Notes: generated from the sequence alone by a model not told the origin. A stretch of DNA of 52,009 bases, filler included, from Sphacelaria rigidula (GCA_964200075.2; 4 parts of 4 records of this genome joined end to end with filler, not necessarily neighbours in it), one strand, 5' to 3'. Numbered from the whole stretch's first letter, positions 12,932 to 39,085 are shown. Program-made: numbers and translations.

Positions 12932-13031
12932 NNNNNNNNNNNNNNNNNNNNNNNNNNNNNNNNNNNNNNNNNNNNTTAATTAATTAANNNNNNNNNNNNN
13001 NNNNNNNNNNNNNNNNNNNNNNNNNNNNNNN
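12932..13031. other. Artificial contig spacer N44-TTAATTAATTAA-N44
   Basis: Six-frame stop linker inside Ns. Confidence 0.97.
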
Positions 13032-25958: not shown

Positions 25959-26058
25959 NNNNNNNNNNNNNNNNNNNNNNNNNNNNNNNNNNNNNNNNNN
26001 NNTTAATTAATTAANNNNNNNNNNNNNNNNNNNNNNNNNNNNNNNNNNNNNNNNNNNN
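25959..26058. other. Artificial contig spacer N44-TTAATTAATTAA-N44
   Basis: Same linker as at 12932. Confidence 0.97.
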
Positions 26059-26260
26059 GGAGGGTCAACACCAGGGCGGAGGGGGGGGGGGGGCAGAGGG
26101 GGGGGGGAGTTGGTGGCGGGGGGGGGGGGGGGGGGGGACCTCCGGACGTGTTAATCCCAATGTTGGACGGATTTTTTTGCCATATTGCGGGATTGCATCG
26201 AAAGACACCGGAAACCTCACGTTACCAGATTCGACGCAAACACGGCATCGATAATCTCAC

Positions 26261-26787
26261 CTACTGCCTGACGCTAGCTGCTCAAGAACCTCGAGGGCGA
26301 GTACATAGCTCTGCGGGAGATCCATCGTAACAGCTCTCGCGTGGCCGTCTGGGTTGTGCGTGATGCGATGAAGAAGCCCCGGCTCATTCTTGTGCTCATT
26401 TTTGTCGCACGGCCAGCCTGTTCCCCGGCCGAACATCTGTGCAATGCCACTTCCCCCAGACGGCACACAGCTGACACAACTTACGCCGTACTCCAATGAA
26501 AGCTCGTGGGGTTGAAGTCCGCGCGATTTCTCTTTCCAGGCATTCAGCCAATCGCGACTCCGATCTTTCACATTACACGCTGCTCCAAACCCCTCCACTC
26601 GGTCCCACTTGTTTCCCACAAGTACCACACTCGCGTCCGGCACACGGAAGGATAAATGCCTCAGCCAGGAGGCAATTCCAAGGTCTTCTAGGTCGATGTT
26701 GATGGTGCTAGCTTTCCCCGCATCAAATACCAAAAGGTACACAGCACGAGGAGTGAGGAACAGCTGGAGCAGCCCGTAGTACACAAC
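26261..26787 (-). CDS. LRR-ROCO gene, ROC C-terminal/COR-start exon (later exons lie beyond the contig end)
   Basis: TTTCATAG|GTT acceptor (phase 0) and AG|GTGAGA donor (phase 2). Encodes VVYYGLLQLFLTPRAVYLLVFD...WLRHLSFRVPDASVVLVGNKWD (G4 NKxD)...LPQSYVLALEVLE. Confidence 0.93.
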
Positions 26788-27279
26788 CTATGAAATGGTC
26801 GCAGTGATTGATCAATGCAACGGCGGAGTCAAATGGCAACAACTGAGTGAGCCACAGAGCGCAGATTCATAGATAAGACGACCATATCAATATACTGACC
26901 GTGTCCAAGATGCTGTGAGGTAGCAGTCAATTTTGTCATGGAGTCGTAGGGGTGACCCCCGAGTTGGAGCCAAAATATCGCCCGCGAGCTTTTGGGGAAA
27001 CGAGACCGGCTCATTGACGATGAGGTCAACCGAAGAGTCAGCGTTGTGAGCTTGGAGGCACTAATGGCAGTGAGTGTGCTCGAAGAGAATATCGAAACTT
27101 TTGCCCATGCTGTAGAGGCAGGATAAGTCACGCGACGAGCTACGAGTTAAAATGCTGCGGCCTTTCGCATCGACGAGTACCACAATAAGGAAGTACGTCG
27201 ACATATCATGTAAGCGGACGGGCTGCGGTAGACCAAGCGCGACAGAACTAATGCTCACGGGAACGAAAATGTGCCTCAC

Positions 27280-27412
27280 CTGACCAGCACAATCAAATAT
27301 CCGAATTGCATGACCATCGACTTCGTGATCTTCAACATCCACATGAACCGTGCTGTCCTCACCACCCTCTCTTGTGGTGCACGGCTTCCCGGCCTTGATG
27401 CTGTGACGTAGG
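27280..27412 (-). CDS. LRR-ROCO gene, ROC switch I/II exon
   Basis: CTCGCAG|C acceptor (phase 2) and GGTCAG|GTGAGG donor (phase 0). Encodes SLRHSIKAG...DSTVHVDVE...IRIFDCAGQ, with G2 Thr and G3 DxxG. Confidence 0.93.
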
Positions 27413-27865
27413 CTGCGAGAGAGCATGTATCACATGACAAGAGACAAAGTTCAATCCAGTTGACCATCAATGATCACACGGTATCTGACGTCGGTCAAGT
27501 CTCCCGAGCGCCTGGTCAGAAACCATTTTGAATCCCATGACGCTCAGTCTCAACAGCATCTCCCCGTCAAGTGACGTCACGTCTAATTTTGATGACTGCA
27601 ACTCGGTTCCCATTAGACACTAGGAAAATCAGACTTGGTCGTGCCGCCGGGAGGGCATGGTCCTACCACGTCTTGGATGCGATATTTCGGTAAGCCGCGG
27701 ATTAGCTCCCACAGTAAAAACAGTGTCAACAGCACGGTCTCTGTGTGACCAGTCTACATGGGTACAAGTTCAGTGCGCAAATGTCGGTGGGATCATTCCG
27801 CAAAACGATCGCGGAATCCCCTAAAACGTTCGGAATCCACAACAGGAGAAATAGCTAGTTCGTAC

Positions 27866-28088
27866 CTCGTCTTCCCGACAGTCTCCTTTCCAACGATGAC
27901 AACCTTAAGTGGTCGGGTTACCGTGGAAGTTCCGCCCCCGATCATGGCTTTAAAGTATCCTCTCACCGCTGGTATACCACCCGTCACGATCGACTCGGGA
28001 GGGTGCTCCCACGGATTTTGATGAAGGGACAAGGAGAAAATTCTTTCAAGGCAGTCCAGAAGAGAGGCCAATTTCACCGGAAGGCTAC
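27866..28088 (-). CDS. LRR-ROCO gene, LRR C-cap/hinge and ROC P-loop exon
   Basis: TTCCAG|GT acceptor (phase 1) and ACGAG|GTACG donor (phase 2). Encodes SLPVKLASLL...QNPWEHPPESIVTGGIPAVRGYF...LKVVIVGKETVGKT, containing the NP..PP hinge and the G1 motif GxxxxGKT. Confidence 0.93.
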
Positions 28089-28600
28089 CTGGAATACACC
28101 AAAATGAAACGCGAGACATGCAGTAGGGCGGAAACATGAAAATTGCGTTGTCAACAGCTAGGGTGGCGCGCATCGCGCACTACCCACGTCCCTATACTGT
28201 CCGGGTCACTCGTCTTTCGTCTACACTGCACGTTTTTAGTTCGGAAGGGGCTGCAATATCTCGGGCATGAACTTGGTGCCTACAGCCAACTCGAGCGATG
28301 CCACGGTAGGGGTGCACTTTTTCCGCCAAATCTCGTCTAGTTCAGGAATTCCGCACGGTTTTAAATGCCCGAGAATATGGGACAGGGCCAGTTCACAATG
28401 AGACTACCTGGAATATGCCAAAATAAAACGCGTGACATGCGGTAGGGCGGCAAGATGAGAATTGCCTCGTTGACGGCCAGGGTGGCGCGCTTCGCACACG
28501 ACCCACACCTTTACACTGTGGGAGTCACTCGTCTTTCATTTGCTTTGCATGTTTTCAGGTGGGGAGGAGCTGTCGCGTCTTCGGTCGGAACTTGGTGCCT
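28060..28600. repeat. Diverged ~318-bp tandem duplication of the intron 3' end, acceptor and start of the ROC-entry exon
   Basis: CTACCTGGAATA..CCAAAAT.AAACGCG.GACATGC.GTAGGGCGG at 28085 and ~28404. Similarity continues through GGGTGGCGCGC, GTCACTCGTCTTTC and ACTTGGTGCCT. Confidence 0.85.
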
Positions 28601-28955
28601 TCGAACCCAGAATTCCAATGAGGGAAAAGATGGTGCAATGTCTCAAGTCGGGGGGTAGCATTGCGTCCACACCACGCACGGTATAAAAATATAGCAGTGG
28701 ATAGTCGCGTGACGTCTCTTCACGGTTCTCGAAGACATTTGAGGTCACGCCGCCTGTTATAAGCGTACTAAACTGAACACGGAGGCTCTACAGATATTTT
28801 TCCAATTACTCAATGCTCTACAACGGGACCTTCGAGTGTAATCTTCCTCAAAACTCCACTTCATGTCCCGAACATGAGCGAGAGCGTCTCGGAATGCCGC
28901 GAATCATCGACAGAAACCAACCCACCCGGTTGGGCTGCCGACGTCCTGGCCTTAC

Positions 28956-28979
28956 CCTGACGGAGTGGATGCCACAGCC
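28956..28979 (-). CDS. LRR-ROCO gene, probable 24-nt linker micro-exon
   Basis: GTGCGTGCAG|GGCTGTGGCATCCACTCCGTCAGG|GTAAGG, strong splice sites, phase 1-1, encodes (G)LWHPLRQ. From memory (unchecked), brown algal ROCOs have a 'GLW' linker after the last LRR. Confidence 0.6.
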
Positions 28980-29587
28980 CTGCACGCACACGTGGGATGA
29001 TCGGCGGAAATTGTAACGTGGAAACTTGTGCACCGAGCAGGAAAACAAGTCTACGTAGCGCCCAGCATGAAAACTTCAATCGTGTGCATTCCGACAACAT
29101 GACGCTGTAGAGGATATTCAATGTCGAGCCCCACGGAGATCTGTCAATTTAGGATTTCGTGCATTGTTGTTGGAGGCACAAGTGAGGCAAGCGGATTGAA
29201 CTCTTCAGCCTTGGCTGGTCACGACTTCCGTACCCTGTGAGTGCATGAGTGTATAACCGCCACAACGATGAGAATGATTTGATGCTGTACCGTGCTGGAC
29301 AGCACCCTAAAGTGCTTGTATACGTGCAGTGCATGATTCGGCAGTGAGCGCGGCATATACGCCACTAATGGCTGGAAAAAAGGGGTATACGATGCTTTCT
29401 AGAGGGTACTTTTATCCTCCCATCAGTCACTATTTCCCCGGGATGAGAATCGCGATGGACGATTCAAACTGGAGTGACCGACGGCCGCGTGTGGGGCCAG
29501 GAGCGTCTATGACAGAACGATGAAACACTCGGGTGAACTGCGAACCGTATCCCTCGTCCCATACAGTCACTCCTGGAAGGAGCTCGA

Positions 29588-29631
29588 CGCCTCGCCGATT
29601 GCTCGAGACGTCCAGTTCTCAGGTTGCTAAG
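29588..29631 (-). pseudogene. 5'-truncated LRR pseudo-exon
   Basis: CTTAGCAACCTGAGA-A-CTGGACGTCTCGAGCAATCGG translates as LSNLR/LDVSSNR with a frameshift, followed by a dead donor-like TCGAGCTCC. Confidence 0.65.
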
Positions 29632-29658
29632 ATAACATCAGTTCCATCAGTTACATCG

Positions 29659-30074
29659 GTTCCCCACCTCCACGACAAGGCGTCCCGCCTACCCGGAGCC
29701 TACCCGGAGACGAGACACAGTTACACAACACAACAGCCGACCACAACTTGACGCTATAGCGTGACCCTCCAATACTACCCCTGCTTACATACACGTTTAT
29801 TTGTCCCGAGGAACTCACCGCTTAGCTGGTTGAAGGAGAGGTCAAGCGTCTCGAGGTTGCTGAGCTGACCGAGGGTGTCCGGGATAGCGCCTGCGTGGTG
29901 TCCAAAACACGCGTGGATTGCAGTGCCATCAGTTCCCCACCTCCACGACAAGGCGTCCCGCCTACCCGGAGCCTACCCGGAGACGAGACACAGTTACACG
30001 ACACAACAGCCGACCACAACTCGACGCTATGGCGTGACCCTCCAATACTACCCCTGCTGACATACACGTTTATT
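29659..30074. repeat. 143-bp intronic direct repeat pair (29659-29801 and 29932-30074) flanking the intact LRR exon
   Basis: Offset 273 bp, 4 mismatches in 143 bp. Each copy contains CCTACCCGGAG twice in tandem. Confidence 0.95.
29819..29890 (-). CDS. LRR-ROCO gene, intact 72-nt single-LRR exon
   Basis: CACGCAG|GC...AGCG|GTGAGT, exactly 72 nt, phase 1-1. Encodes (G)AIPDTLGQLSNLETLDLSFNQLS(G), matching the 24-aa plant-type LRR consensus GxIPxxLGxLxxLxxLxLxxNxLS. Confidence 0.95.
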
Positions 30075-30122
30075 GGTTCAACAGACACATGGCGATACCC
30101 TACATTCGTTCAGGGAACTCGT

Positions 30123-30192
30123 CGCCTTCCCGGGTTTTGTAGAGGGAAAACTTTCCTAGCCCGCCCAGCTGACCCAAAAATCGGAATTTCAT
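30123..30192 (-). pseudogene. Decayed LRR pseudo-exon (70 nt)
   Basis: Reads EIP-FLGQLGGLGKFSLYKTREG after allowing a 2-nt deletion. Acceptor reads CGG instead of CAG; donor reads ACGAGTTCC versus GTGAGTTCC at the intact exon. Confidence 0.75.
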
Positions 30193-30263
30193 CCGAAGTG
30201 TTCGAAACGGATAGACGTACATCGGATGTTTGTATTTCCACAGTAGTTTTTTGTCCGTGCGCT

Positions 30264-30310
30264 CGGTGAGAGTCATAGATGCCTCCAGGAGTCCGAGGTT
30301 TCCGGGAACG
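30264..30310 (-). pseudogene. Possible highly decayed LRR pseudo-exon
   Basis: After CTTCAG it reads VPGNLGLLEASMTLT (IPxxLGxLxxLxxL-like); no donor visible. Confidence 0.3.
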
Positions 30311-31354
30311 CTGAAGTAGCGTCATCATACACCGAGTGTGCTGAAACTTGTGTTGGGTAGATCATAACCTCGCGAAACAGAGGAAGGCTAAATATATACA
30401 GCGTTCGCCACGTTTCCCCAGGCAAGGCTAAAAAGAACGAGAGCGGACGCATGATAGCAATGAAGCCGTTCACCAAGCCTACTGAACCCTGTCGACACAT
30501 CGGAGTCCCGCAGACTAAGCGAAGGCGGACGTTAGCCGCGTAGCAGAGGCATGTGGAATTCCGAAATGTCTCATGGGGTTTGGGTGGCGCATGTTCAAAG
30601 AGCCTGTGAGAACATGGGATACAAACAGGTACCGACAAGCTTTGACAAGTACACTCACGGTGAACGGACAGACCACGTGCCGATACGGTGTGTCTACCTG
30701 ACTAACACGACGTGAAAATGCCCTCCTCGAGCATCCCGATATGGTCACAAGATAGACGTACGAGAGATGAAACACGCATCAATCCTGGCTGAAGCGAAGT
30801 GGAGAAAAAACATGCGGGGTCGACACATCACACAAGTCTAGAGGGCGAAAAAAACCGTCCTCAAAGAACAACTGCAAAAAGTCCGCAAAGGACAACTGCA
30901 ATTGCCCTGCCCCGGAAAGGTGACTTCAGGTGGAGACGATCTTTCGGAACAGCACATGCATTTCTCCTCGAGATGAGGCAGTCAACACCATGGGAACACA
31001 TTACCGTCCATCTATTCCGGCGGCATAATGTTGAGGGTGAGCTCCCATACCGTAAGTAGAATCAACAAACGGGAACACATGTATATCGGTAGAGACTCAA
31101 CAAGGGAACGACACAAGTTAAGGAGGCTTGAACGCCAAACGATACGGCGAACGATACAGTACAATCAAGTCGCTGAAACACCACAGGAAGCACCCTGGCA
31201 ACACTATCAACGACAGAATCAACATTCAACGCGTACACGGGGGTACTCGAGTTCAAGTGACCGCTCGTATCTCCAACTTCATCGCTGGTCGGCTACCAAG
31301 CGGGCCACTCTCACGACCACCTCAATCCTGGATCCATGGTAAGGCTCACAGTAC

Positions 31355-31523
31355 CTTGGATGCGATGGTGTCGAAGAAAAAGCTGGACCACACGACTTTC
31401 ATCGTTAAGTTTTACTCCTTCCCAATCCGAGAGGTCGACATTCGTTCCCCAGTTACGCAAGGTAACCCCAGGACCGGCCGACAGATACAGAGTAAGCAGG
31501 AGGTCACTATCCGTCGGTGCCAT
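31355..31523 (-). CDS. LRR-ROCO gene, first coding exon (LRR N-terminal cap)
   Basis: ATG at 31523. Encodes MAPTDSDLLLTLYLSAGPGVTLRNWGTNVDLSDWEGVKLNDESRVVQLFLRHHRIQ(G), which resembles the LRRNT_2-like cap (TD..L..LY...NW.T...LS.W.GV..N...RVV.L.L) of brown algal LRR-GTPases. Ends at phase-1 donor CAAG|GTACTG (169 nt = 56 codons + 1). Confidence 0.9.
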
Positions 31524-32369
31524 TTCAGGAAGAACCTGTGTAGTTCAAGAGAGGGAAAACGGTATCTCAGGTGATCGAAAGAGCAAAACCAACTTGAGTG
31601 GGACGAGTCACCCCCTTTATATGATGGGACCAGTACGTTGGGATCATCGCAAAATGAAATCGTCAAATACTCTACACCGCGAACGACACACAGCTTCGGA
31701 CTTACGTATGGACCGCTTCGCGGCGTGGTAACCACTCCGGGGAGGATATCCAAATTCGACGAAAAATAAACCACAGCGACAACCACCTGGGTCGTACTTG
31801 TGGCTCTTAGCAACGACACTCACCCGACGACACACATCTCAACTTGATACATATCAAAACCTGAGACGTCCGATGACGCGCTTACATGGCTGCGGATTTT
31901 GCCGAGATGTGCTGACGAGAACCACAGCGTTGTGGCCAACCGAGTAGTAGACATGTCCGATTGAATACATCCTACATAACCGACACAGGAAACTATACTT
32001 CCGCTGTGTCATGGCACCGTCATGTTTGCACGGTACCTCGATCATCTCCGGTATCATGAGCGACAATATTTTCGCGCATCACCCTGGATGAGCGCGAATA
32101 CCAAACCATCAATCCCATTTATTTTTCTCCGTGAGTTGTTGGCATTTCTGTTCCAAAAAACTGTTGTGAAATGTTCCGTAGCCGATAACTCACGGCGAAA
32201 AAAAATGGGATGAAAGGCTTGGTGTTCGCACATGCGTCCTGGGCGGGGGGGGAGGGGGGGAATGTTGGTGATGATGGCGTTTTTTGCGNNNNNNNNNNTT
32301 TTTGTTAAAAGCTGAGGAACAAGAAGGAAAAAGAAAAAAAAAGGGGGGGGGGGGGGTGGGGTGTCCCCA

Positions 32370-32400
<31 letters not shown>

Positions 32401-32456
32401 ATGTTGGTGATGATGGCGTTTTTTGCGCCGGGCCTCATGTGTGAAATTCGTCCCAG

Positions 32457-33471: not shown

Positions 33472-36400
33472 TGTGTTTCGCACAGCGTGCGGGCGCGATG
33501 TGGATGAGAAGCGGGCGACGCGACACACGGCAAATTTGACAGAGACGCTTTTGGCCTCTTTGCATACAGGAGGATGCACAGCAGATTTGAACCACGTGCA
33601 GATTTTCATCGCCTCAAGACTAAAAGCGCGTTGGTAATTCGATCCCCCACCTCGAGACGCAACTCTGTCGGTGGACCCTGCCACAAAATTAGCTGCCCAA
33701 GTCTTTGCCAGCAAGAAGAAACACCCGCCGAAGGTTTGGTGGTGCCGGTTTCCTATTATCGCTGCACTATCTATCCCTGTGCCGGGTTCGTGATTTGTGC
33801 CGCAGGGGTGGGTAGGTAGTCGGGAATGAACGGTTCGGCTCTCGCATGATTCTGCGGAAGGGCAGATAGTATCTGGCACGGCTGTCTGCAACATGGGAGT
33901 CACGTGCCGCTTCGTTCATTCCACCGCTCGTTGCGCTCGAAAAAGCCAAGCTTCTTGTTCTCGACCCTGCCCGTCGCGCCCAACCTATTATAAAATGAGC
34001 TCGAACCCAACTTGGAAAATGAATGCCGTAGACGTATCAGATTCGGTCTCGCGAAGACCATTTCGATTCGACCGCATGTTCCCGACTGGGTAAAAATCTG
34101 ATACGTCTACTGTACGTCATTTATGTTCCTCGATGGCCCTGACTCCATTTCAGAATTAGTTAAGCGCGACGGGCAGGTCAAAAGCAAGAAGCTTGGCGTT
34201 TTCGAGCGTAACGAGCGGCGGAATGAACGAAGCGGCACGCTACTCCCCCATGTTGCAGACAGCCGTGCCAGATACTCCCTTTCGCAGAATTATCCAAGAC
34301 CCAAACCGTTCATTCTCGACCACCTACTCATCCTTGCGGCACAGATCACGAACTGGGCGCAGGGATACACTGCAGTGAAGGGAAACCGAATCACTGTTCA
34401 AGCATGATATGTTCGTTTTGTTGGCGAGAACTTGGGATCTGCTTTCGTGACGAGGTCCACCGACGGACATGTGTGTCGGGGTAGAGGATCGATTTGCCAA
34501 TGCGCTCATGGACAGTTCGTTCACCTCTAGACCGCGAGTAACTTTCTTGTTGATTTGGCATCAATTTCAAGTGAAAAAAGTATGTATGATCCAGAAGGAC
34601 TGATCTCGCGGTCCAGGGGTTGAGGCGGTGAAAAACTACACGGTTAGGACAAATCAAGATTCACGGTTAGGACAAATCAAGAACAAGTCGACTCGCCATG
34701 ACGCGCAAGCAGTCATGCTGTATAAACCGGAGGTCCCGCGGAGTCGAGGGTGAATAGCACAGATGCACTGCAGCCATCTTGCGCGCAGTACAGCTGTGAA
34801 AAATATGCGCGTGGTTCAAGGCCCATCAATAGTGAAGAGTCGACCTGTATACAACTCGTCAGTCTTGCATCAGCCCGAAGGTGGGACAAATGTGCGGGCG
34901 CTTATCCCCAACAAGTTAGCCAAGCAAGTTGTACATGACGTTCCCGACCCATGATAATAAAAACGCGTGACATGTACAATCGATGCATCCATATTTTCAT
35001 CGCAGGGTTGACTCTTTTGCCCATTATTTACCCCCAAGTCATGGAAGGTATGAAGCGAGGACCCTCGGGTTAGACCAAGCCAGGCACAAGCCAAGGAGAT
35101 GTATGATTTACAAATGATGTACGACTATTATGATCTTTCCAATGAAATGATGGCTCTGAGTTGACCACGAGTCATCATGTCATATCGCCAAAAATTCTGA
35201 AAGCATCGTGTGCACAGTCGGTACCGTTACCGTTCACGGTACGGCAAGGTATCACAGTGATGTTTCATGTTATACTGATGTGCTCTGCGTTGGCCTCGTT
35301 TTGGTGTGGTGAGTGTAGTGAGCCCGTGAATGTGTAGTGCAGCGTACAGTGTCGTATTGTGGGAGCACACGGTACGCTGCCGTGCTGGTTTGTACGGAAC
35401 TGTGTCGTGATGTGCTGTAGTGTATTTTGTTGTAGTCTAGTCTATTGTAGTGTGACCTAGCCTAGCCCAGCGTAGTGTATCCGTGTTGCTGTGCTATGCT
35501 TTGTTGGGCCCGGACAAGGAAACTCCGAGTGGGTTCTGTCAAGGTCCGTTCATAAACAGCAATTGCCAGCTGCGGTGAACCACCGTACATCACTGCGCAT
35601 TTTTTTTTTACGATACGCAATCTACAATATCCTCCATGTTTATTCCTTGTCCCATGGTACCGGCCACATCCCCTTCGCTGTCGGTTAGTCCCAAGCACAG
35701 AAAAGTGAAAAGTGCTTCGTGTACCGGCACGGCGGAGCAATTTGTACAGGTGCCTTCAGTACAATATCGCGTGCTTCCTCCCTGTGAGATCTCAAGACAA
35801 CAGCATTCGATCACGCCATCGATGGTTTTTAATTGGAAGAACGCATATTTTCACCATTACGCGGAGGAACCACTTGTGCACGGTACCAAACAGCCGCGGC
35901 GAACTGACGCGCCTCCTCCCACCTGCCGGGTGTAGTATCATGTTGACTCGCCATGATACGCAAGCTATCATCCTGTATAAACCGTAGGTCCGCGGAGTCG
36001 AGGGTGCATTACACATGCAGCACATTACCCACGAGAAAAAAATGTGCGAGATACAGGCCCCATCAACACGAAATGGCAGAATTCACCCCTTTGCCAAGTG
36101 TTTGTCCCACTTTCACTCGAGGGTGGATAACATATAACATTTTGTGCAGTGCCGGCAACTTGCGCGTTTAACAGGTTTGAGAAAAGTGTGTGTGGTTCAG
36201 GCCGCATGACTGCAGATTGATTACCGTTATTGACTTGGGTAGGTCCCGCACCATCACCAAGAAGGGTTGACAGCGTGAATTACATCTCATGTACGAACCG
36301 CATGATTTTTTCATTGAGATGATTGAGTTGACTCTCGATTTGATTTGTTCTAACCGTGAAAAACTACACGTGGTTCAAATCTGCTTCGCATTCTCCTGTA

Positions 36401-38985: not shown

Positions 38986-39085
38986 NNNNNNNNNNNNNNN
39001 NNNNNNNNNNNNNNNNNNNNNNNNNNNNNTTAATTAATTAANNNNNNNNNNNNNNNNNNNNNNNNNNNNNNNNNNNNNNNNNNNN
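38986..39085. other. Artificial contig spacer N44-TTAATTAATTAA-N44
   Basis: Same linker as at 12932. Confidence 0.97.

Follow-up and report, generated by a model that had tools for sequence, protein, structure and literature searches.

How a single intact LRR exon came to lie between two nearly identical intron blocks, with decayed LRR exons on either side, is the question raised by this locus of the brown alga Sphacelaria rigidula. The original prediction read the arrangement as the footprint of an exon cassette inserted into a ROCO gene. The window, that is, the whole stretch of DNA that was analysed, is 52,009 bases long and consists of four pieces of 12,931, 12,927, 12,927 and 12,924 nt, separated by three spacers of the form N44-TTAATTAATTAA-N44 at 12932-13031, 25959-26058 and 38986-39085. 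It is four separate contigs placed end to end and no single stretch of chromosome. Because the spacers split the window, no feature should be followed from one piece into the next, and genes that reach an edge are truncated there. The gene and the repeat discussed here are located on the 12,927-nt contig at 26059-38985, and the gene runs off the end of that contig at 26059. Upstream of the gene, the region 32241-32427 holds a 10-N gap (32289-32298) between two 48-nt copies that are 95.8% alike, with long G runs adjoining the gap at 32343-32399; this region is probably a scaffolding or low-complexity assembly problem. On the same contig, about 880 nt at 33625-34506 align with their own reverse complement at 72.8% over 917 aligned columns and form a large imperfect palindrome.

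The gene lies on the minus strand. Exon 1 (31355-31523) supplies the start codon, an N-terminal cap and a first LRR-like motif (RVVQLFLRHHRIQG). It is followed by a 1464-nt GT..AG intron (29891-31354), which contains one of the two blocks (B) and a decayed exon (E0) and is matched by paralogue-like contigs over 30196-31354. Next comes the intact 72-nt LRR exon (E1, 29819-29890), then an 839-nt GT..AG intron (28980-29818) with the other block (A) and a further decayed exon (E2), and then a 54-nt linker exon (28926-28979; LWHPLRQGKARTSAAQP). The remaining exons encode the last LRR-like cap together with the Roc P-loop GKETVGKT (27866-28088), the Roc motif DCAGQ (27280-27412) and the Roc domain from NKWD onward (26260-26787), so that all three Roc GTPase motifs are in the gene. 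The last of these exons ends at a donor-like AG/GTGAGA about 200 nt from the contig end. A truncated gene with a stop after Roc was considered and rejected, as the stop overlaps this donor-like site.

Several comparisons bear on the identity of the gene. An unnamed, partial protein product of Sphacelaria rigidula (P0001) is 100% identical to the minus-strand exons 28083-27868, 27414-27277 and 26787-26260, and it matches the Pfam Roc family PF08477 at 7.2e-15 (55.7 bits, cut-off 27). Exon 1 can be aligned with the N-terminal part of two brown-algal homologues, P0006 and P0010, both reached via the Roc exon. With a Roc GTPase domain and N-terminal LRRs both present, the gene is predicted to be of the LRR-Roc (ROCO) type, and the assignment to the brown-algal ROCO genes made in the original prediction is borne out by the identity to P0001 and the Roc match. 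No match was found in the window to residues of P0012 beyond 543; the COR part probably lies off the contig and is not deleted. When P0001 was compared with a metagenome collection, none of 550 pattern matches was confirmed by tblastn.

To place the gene in independent sequence data, contigs from four (X1, X3, X4 and X9, from three studies) of the nine public runs with the 5-kb stretch were compared over 27250-31600 at 80% likeness. Among the four, X4 is the only one in which contigs skip parts ending in CT..AC, that is, GT..AG on the minus strand, and they do so exactly at exon borders. The skipped parts are 29891-31354 (1464 nt, contig depth 73.9), 28980-29818 (839 nt, 57.4), 28089-28925 (837 nt, 46.2) and 27413-27865 (453 nt, 90.5). 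The other three runs, which are DNA-like, have no depth at any of these four joints. No run with this stretch is recorded as RNA; X4 is taken to be RNA by a guess and is used here for its GT..AG joints. The splicing is thus seen in one run, and three of its joints have short sides of 27-28 nt. The contig of depth 73.9 carries the window's own exon 1 letters at sites where the paralogue-like contigs differ. When the exons are joined at the X4 sites, the reading frame remains open for 393 codons, beginning with the ATG at 31523 and passing E1, the linker and the Roc exons. Since the joints fall at exon borders and the frame stays open, the gene is expressed, as observed in this one RNA-like run.

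In the spliced transcript, E1 is the sole canonical LRR exon and sits between exon 1 and the linker exon. Skipping it would preserve the frame, and no such isoform is found among the 15 joints listed of 31. The exon, read from 29890 to 29819, has AG directly ahead of it and GTGAGT directly after it; two codon bases stand at its start and one at its end, and it encodes the peptide (G)AIPDTLGQLSNLETLDLSFNQLS(G). As had been claimed, it is the only intact 72-nt LRR exon in the window, a point on which a frame scan and a profile agree: no other 72-nt frame in the window has both an in-register LxxLxLxxNxL core and the flanking AG and GT, and an LRR profile built from 47 homologue units and run over the whole contig scores E1 at 24.2 bits and the next hit (30151-30177) at -4.7 bits. 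Pfam searches of single ORFs of the locus returned weak LRR matches for E1 alone, and no LRR exon was found on the non-coding strand. Its length of 72 nt, its pattern GxxPxxLxxxxxLxxLxLxxNxLx, its equal end phases, its intact splice sites and its junctions in X4 agree with the type I LRR exon; the earlier identification with the exon type of brown-algal ROCO genes holds against the accessible parts of the published descriptions (PMC3341825, PMC11378527). A 65-aa ORF across E1 matched 36 proteins from 57 candidates, with a best identity of 73% over about a third of the query; most of the named matches are land-plant LRR proteins, in a search where the word-based choice of candidates crowds out relatives. 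The intact state of this exon need not be a sign of recent arrival, because E1 is the LRR exon in use, as the X4 splicing shows, and purifying selection explains its state.

The decayed exons on either side differ in how clearly they can be recognized. E2 (29578-29632, minus strand) is a 5'-truncated LRR exon remnant that begins some 16 nt beyond the outer end of block A. It aligns with the 3' two thirds of E1 and the donor region at about 66% identity, with a score of 28 that none of 500 shuffles reached. Its first 26 nt or so and its acceptor are missing, its frame is lost, and TC replaces the donor GT. E0 (30123-30194, minus strand), 45 nt from block B, is a heavily decayed remnant. Its local alignment to E1 is not significant, as 124 of 500 shuffles reached the score. 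At an offset of 304, an ungapped comparison of E0 with E1 gives 43 matches in 101 positions, more than at any other of the 12,133 offsets compared along the contig (mean 25.4, sd 4.4). E0 retains GGTCAGCT and GAGTTCC at the spacing found in E1 and has lost both splice sites, with TC for AG and AC for GT. The claim that the neighbouring exons are diverged and have dead splice sites therefore stands firmly for E2 and weakly for E0, and in those same degrees the two appear to be truly dead remnants.

Blocks A and B are the most similar direct repeat of their size in the window. A repeat search delimits them as 157 nt with 95% identity and a spacing of 273, at 29648-29804 (A, in the intron downstream of E1 in the gene sense) and 29921-30077 (B, in the intron upstream of E1). 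The two 143-nt cores, 29659-29801 and 29932-30074, align without gaps at offset 273 with four mismatches, at 29727, 29749, 29758 and 29786, and identity falls to the random level within a few bases of both core ends. These values agree to the base with those given before. One of the four differences is in question: at 29727 the window has A, yet every covering contig in all four runs and three studies reads G, as does block B. The A is probably an assembly consensus error, and since all runs read G here the true difference between the blocks may be 3 in 143. By BLASTN, the window holds two copies of the block, and the 116-nt piece between them (29805-29920, minus strand), in which the exon is preceded by the last 30 nt of one intron and followed by the first 14 nt of the next, occurs once in the window. 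A full 273-bp tandem duplication does not describe this arrangement, since at offset 273 the likeness covers 157 of the 273 positions and drops to random on both sides; nothing beside either block matches the cassette at that offset. The earlier exclusion of a simple tandem duplication is thereby upheld.

Within each block, as had been noted, the 11-mer CCTACCCGGAG is perfectly doubled, at 29687-29709 in A (register GCCTACCCGGA) and at 29960-29982 in B. All four of its exact matches in the window fall in the blocks, and one further match with a single mismatch lies at 31735-31745; with up to one mismatch allowed, shuffles lead one to expect 0.48 matches. Three tandem 9-mers resembling CATCAGTTC occupy 29636-29663, where block A meets its outer flank; block B has a single copy of the 9-mer.

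No inverted repeats were found in 28500-31500, no Rfam family matched 28000-30400 at E values up to 1, no tRNA-like element was found at the locus, and no target-site duplication is evident at the edges of either block or of the pair. Hallmarks of MITE, SINE or LTR-type transposable elements are thus missing at the locus. A 147-aa ORF across block B had no match in a word-indexed protein library and none among 1.84 billion representatives, no annotated or predicted protein in the libraries searched reads through a block copy in the frame of that ORF, and a 22-base block pattern had no match in the metagenome collection. A stable intronic RNA such as a snoRNA was rejected on the missing Rfam match and on X4 depth, which over the blocks equals that of the rest of the intron (4.3-5.8). 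Introner-like elements have ends that coincide with splice sites. This class was also rejected for the blocks, which end 14-45 nt and 30 nt from splice sites and not at them. As two near-identical direct repeats, the blocks are a ready substrate for gain or loss of a 273-bp unit by unequal exchange, a role that is putative only.

The sequencing runs contain more block-like sequences than the two in the window, and the block is not confined to this locus. Position 29727 is covered by 5 distinct contigs in X1, 5 in X3, 2 in X4 and 4 in X9, and position 29963 by 7, 4, 0 and 6 in the same order. In the DNA-like runs, the summed word depth of the block is 234-784, on a scale where contig word depth neither equals copy number nor tells whether other copies adjoin LRR exons; contigs identical to the window in the flanks have depths of about 26 (X1), 9-15 (X3, three contigs) and 14-30 (X9). 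Blocks A and B share T at 29690 and 29963, and at 29963 most other block-like contigs read A, so that the perfect doubling of the 11-mer is common to A and B and is not general; its role as a signal, suggested in the original prediction, is putative only. One contig tracks a B-like block as far as 30048, continues with 12 other letters and resumes at 29788 towards the exon, thus going back 261. With a depth of 24.7 in X1 and 12.9 in X3 it appears single-copy, and at least 51 nt are covered on each side. It is either a third block beside the same exon-side flank at another genomic site or one more unit at the present locus. The outer junction into block A is bridged in all four runs (X1, 29071-29688; X3, 29154-29688; X4, 29104-29702; X9, 29229-29682), and the junction out of block B is bridged by one X3 contig (30024-30307), so that the outer structure is no assembly chimera. 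No circle was seen, and none of the 15 joints listed of 31 corresponds to a 273-bp length variant, in contigs whose 31-letter words are too short to span the identical core of 68-90 nt and from which rare variants are dropped. Since the same outer junctions occur in contigs of four runs from three studies, the arrangement is probably inherited.

The contigs also point to a mosaic around the segment. Contigs about 12% different from the window (for example, 37 other letters in 296) also cover 30196-31600, which takes in exon 1 and, of the 1464-nt intron, the 5' two thirds, and they stop at 30196, the edge of E0. Depth over 28418-29585 is near single-copy in most bins. The front of the gene thus seems to have paralogues, and 28418-29585 seems mostly not to; with paralogue-like contigs stopping at 30196 and near single-copy depth at 28418-29585, the locus is a mosaic. 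Farther into the gene, 28082-28281 and 28401-28600 form a direct duplication (76.5% across 200 nt at offset 319) by which the acceptor and the opening codons of the Roc-side exon (GSLPVKL vs GSLIVNW) recur in the upstream intron; it is a second, older trace of local duplication in the gene. In the intron ahead of the Roc exon, about 54 nt at 28293-28346 have an enormous summed contig depth: the bin 28272-28417 reaches 159,101 in X1, against about 26 beside it, and 5,310 in X4. Many loose contig ends occur there, diverging on one side and sharing a common consensus on the other. This piece looks like a fragment of a very abundant repeat, and Rfam has no match to it.

The explanation that best fits these observations, with a probability of roughly 45%, is that the 430-bp segment 29648-30077 represents 1.57 units of a young 273-bp exon-plus-intron repeat lying in an older, decayed LRR region. 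The unit would consist of the 72-nt exon, 14 nt, the 157-nt block and 30 nt, which sum to 273 nt and give an intron of 201 nt, with blocks A and B being successive introns of the repeat. A fragment that exceeds one period would always carry an in-register end repeat equal to its length minus 273, and 430 minus 273 is 157 bp. Since a 430-bp fragment by itself would yield 157-bp blocks, no special signal would be needed. The third block on the same exon-side flank is what would be expected if block and exon form one repeated unit.

The contrast between young and old sequence is sharp. The blocks differ at 3-4 of 143 positions, whereas E2 is about 66% and E0 43% like E1; a repeat tract set beside flanks as decayed as these calls for some recombination event. 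The edges of the segment may hold traces of it. In the intact unit, the block starts 14 nt past the donor and ends 30 nt ahead of the next acceptor. At the B edge, 45 nt separate the dead donor of E0 from the block, so that 31 extra nt lie right at the edge. At the A edge, the block gives way after some 16 nt to E2 from about its 27th base, which leaves no intron end, acceptor or exon start. This junction also has the first 9 nt of the block in two additional tandem copies, which may reflect junctional templated copying. Judged from such features, both outer edges look like non-homologous junctions. The fragment could have been pasted from another LRR array by illegitimate recombination, through end-joining or template switching, or two deletions could have left it as the remainder of a once longer young array at the same place; insertion and deletion remnant cannot be told apart from the present structure. 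We infer from the sequence of a single locus that the donor was periodic and the outer junctions non-homologous, and likewise in which order the events took place. No donor array or second cassette was found in the other sequence collections and protein libraries searched. The contig that goes back 261 could come from an unrelated paralogue or reflect a collapsed extra unit at this locus.

Other origins for the pair of blocks have to be weighed against a fragment of a 273-bp repeat. The block could be a small dispersed repeat unrelated to LRR units, such as a TE fragment or a non-autonomous element, two copies of which flank the exon by chance or carry it. The high word depth and the several distinct block contigs in the three DNA-like runs would agree with this, as would the sharp, in-register ends of both copies. 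However, the element would have to be one without terminal inverted repeats, tRNA-like part, Rfam match or evident target-site duplication, and taking the blocks out would leave introns of about 75 nt and about 30 nt with E2 still truncated. Two insertions in the same orientation 116 nt apart are improbable given the handful of distinct contigs, and the third block adjoins the same exon-side flank. In the available part of their text, Zambounis et al. also state that a role of TEs in exon shuffling finds no support in their initial observations (PMC3341825). A dispersed repeat is therefore regarded as an unlikely source of the blocks. Conversion in place is somewhat less easily accepted still: an intron tract of 143-157 nt would have been copied onto the neighbouring intron of an old E0-E1-E2 array, or both tracts would have come from a block family elsewhere. 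A length of 143-157 nt is typical of gene conversion, the two blocks take up similar positions in neighbouring introns of an array with a period of about 270-300 (E0 to E1, 304), and A and B have in common the T at 29690 and 29963, for which A is the reading of most other block-like contigs. Conversion nevertheless needs homology at the edges, and no older block homology is detectable elsewhere on the contig. The indels lie exactly at both edges, and the truncation of E2 beside A would have to be a coincidence. Edge indels added later to a conversion tract would look identical to non-homologous joins.

The mechanism put forward in the original prediction, in which one homologous crossover, in a block resident between E0 and E2, brought in a 273-bp unit of exon plus intron from a circle or out of a misaligned paralogue, gains little from these data and is quite improbable. 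Its topology is exact, with one period inserted and the blocks in register; other block-like sequences are available as partners; and the accessible text of PMC3341825 reports that LRR exons recombine between genes at the ROCO loci of Ectocarpus. It requires, however, a young resident block about 97% like the donor's between remnants that are 34-57% diverged, which it leaves unexplained, and a crossover inside the block would yield neither the 31-nt spacer at B nor the truncated E2 and the 9-mers at A, where the edges look non-homologous. A bolder version, in which the block is a dedicated recombination substrate of brown-algal LRR arrays, 273-bp units are exchanged among ROCO loci by way of the block, possibly with excised circles or template switching and possibly somatically too, and a near-dead receptor is re-armed with one new LRR exon, would supply the long-missing mechanism of ROCO exon shuffling, and we consider it very improbable. 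Least probable of all is that the duplication or its copy number is an artefact of short-read assembly, an outcome that had been named as a danger to the cassette reading. In its favour, the contigs are about 12.9 kb long with a 10-N gap, all four runs have G at 29727 where the window has A, and the contig that goes back 261 could mean one collapsed unit. For its short-read assemblies, the brown-alga genome project used SPAdes with k up to 127 (bioRxiv 10.1101/2024.02.19.579948), the inclusion of this strain not being established. Against it, contigs identical or nearly identical to the window bridge the junction into A in four runs and the junction out of B in X3, the splicing of E1 to exon 1 and the linker in X4 means that E1 sits between them here, and the longest identical stretch of 68-90 nt is shorter than k = 127. 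What the original prediction described thus holds, and how it was interpreted finds partial support. The segment is a real and fairly young trace of the known reshuffling of ROCO LRR exons and not proof of a special insertion mechanism. With its single used LRR exon, clean boundaries, junction features and repeated intron block, the locus offers a compact test case for whether whole exon-plus-intron units are moved, which sequence is used, and whether the joins are homologous or end-joined.

Known systems give this reading its context. In the available text of Zambounis et al. 2012, the ROCO (LRR-Roc-COR) genes of Ectocarpus encode one LRR per 72-nt 'type I LRR exon', inactivated LRR exons lie in introns, the LRR domain is a recombination hot spot and many loci have decayed; intra- and intergenic recombination can be traced, with the mechanism left open (PMC3341825). 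The present gene shares with those described there the 72-nt LRR exon, the dead intronic LRR exons and a recombined LRR region; unlike them, it belongs to another species, has one canonical LRR exon in use and has no LRR exon on the non-coding strand. Teng et al. 2024, in the part of their text that is available, confirm this picture and describe for the ROCO genes of four brown algae a 72-bp exon in which nucleotides 3-71 encode the LRR, a uniform intron phase and 4-49 LRR motifs per gene, and they favour alternative splicing of LRR exons over somatic recombination (PMC11378527). As far as that account goes, the likeness extends to the 72-bp LRR exon, the same-phase introns and a skip of E1 that would preserve the frame, whereas the gene described here, in place of 4-49 motifs, has a single canonical LRR exon and, in exon 1, an LRR-like motif, and its introns are phase 1 by the usual convention where Teng et al. 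call the phase '2'. The accessible text of PMC3341825 and PMC11378527 contains no mention of a flanking intron direct repeat of 143-157 nt.

Receptor genes outside the brown algae offer looser parallels. In plant R genes, tandem arrays of LRR exons evolve by unequal crossing-over or gene conversion. By analogy, the present segment resembles such arrays in its apparent exon-plus-intron units, in a change of copy number that could arise through misaligned introns and in its mosaic of ages; unlike them, its outer edges look non-homologous and it holds 1.57 units only. The assembly of lamprey VLR genes is somatic and relies on short coding homology and dedicated deaminases. A resemblance may be drawn in that LRR-coding cassettes would be copied into a receptor gene; the arrangement here, in contrast, is probably inherited, as runs from three studies have the same junctions, and no sign of somatic change was observed. 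The available text of PMC3341825 itself draws the analogy to the lamprey, where VLR genes are assembled from flanking LRR cassettes. Among these systems, the locus is a further instance, in another brown alga, of the known shuffling of ROCO LRR exons and no new system; what is unusual about it is the combination of a single LRR exon in use with clean boundaries between young and old sequence.
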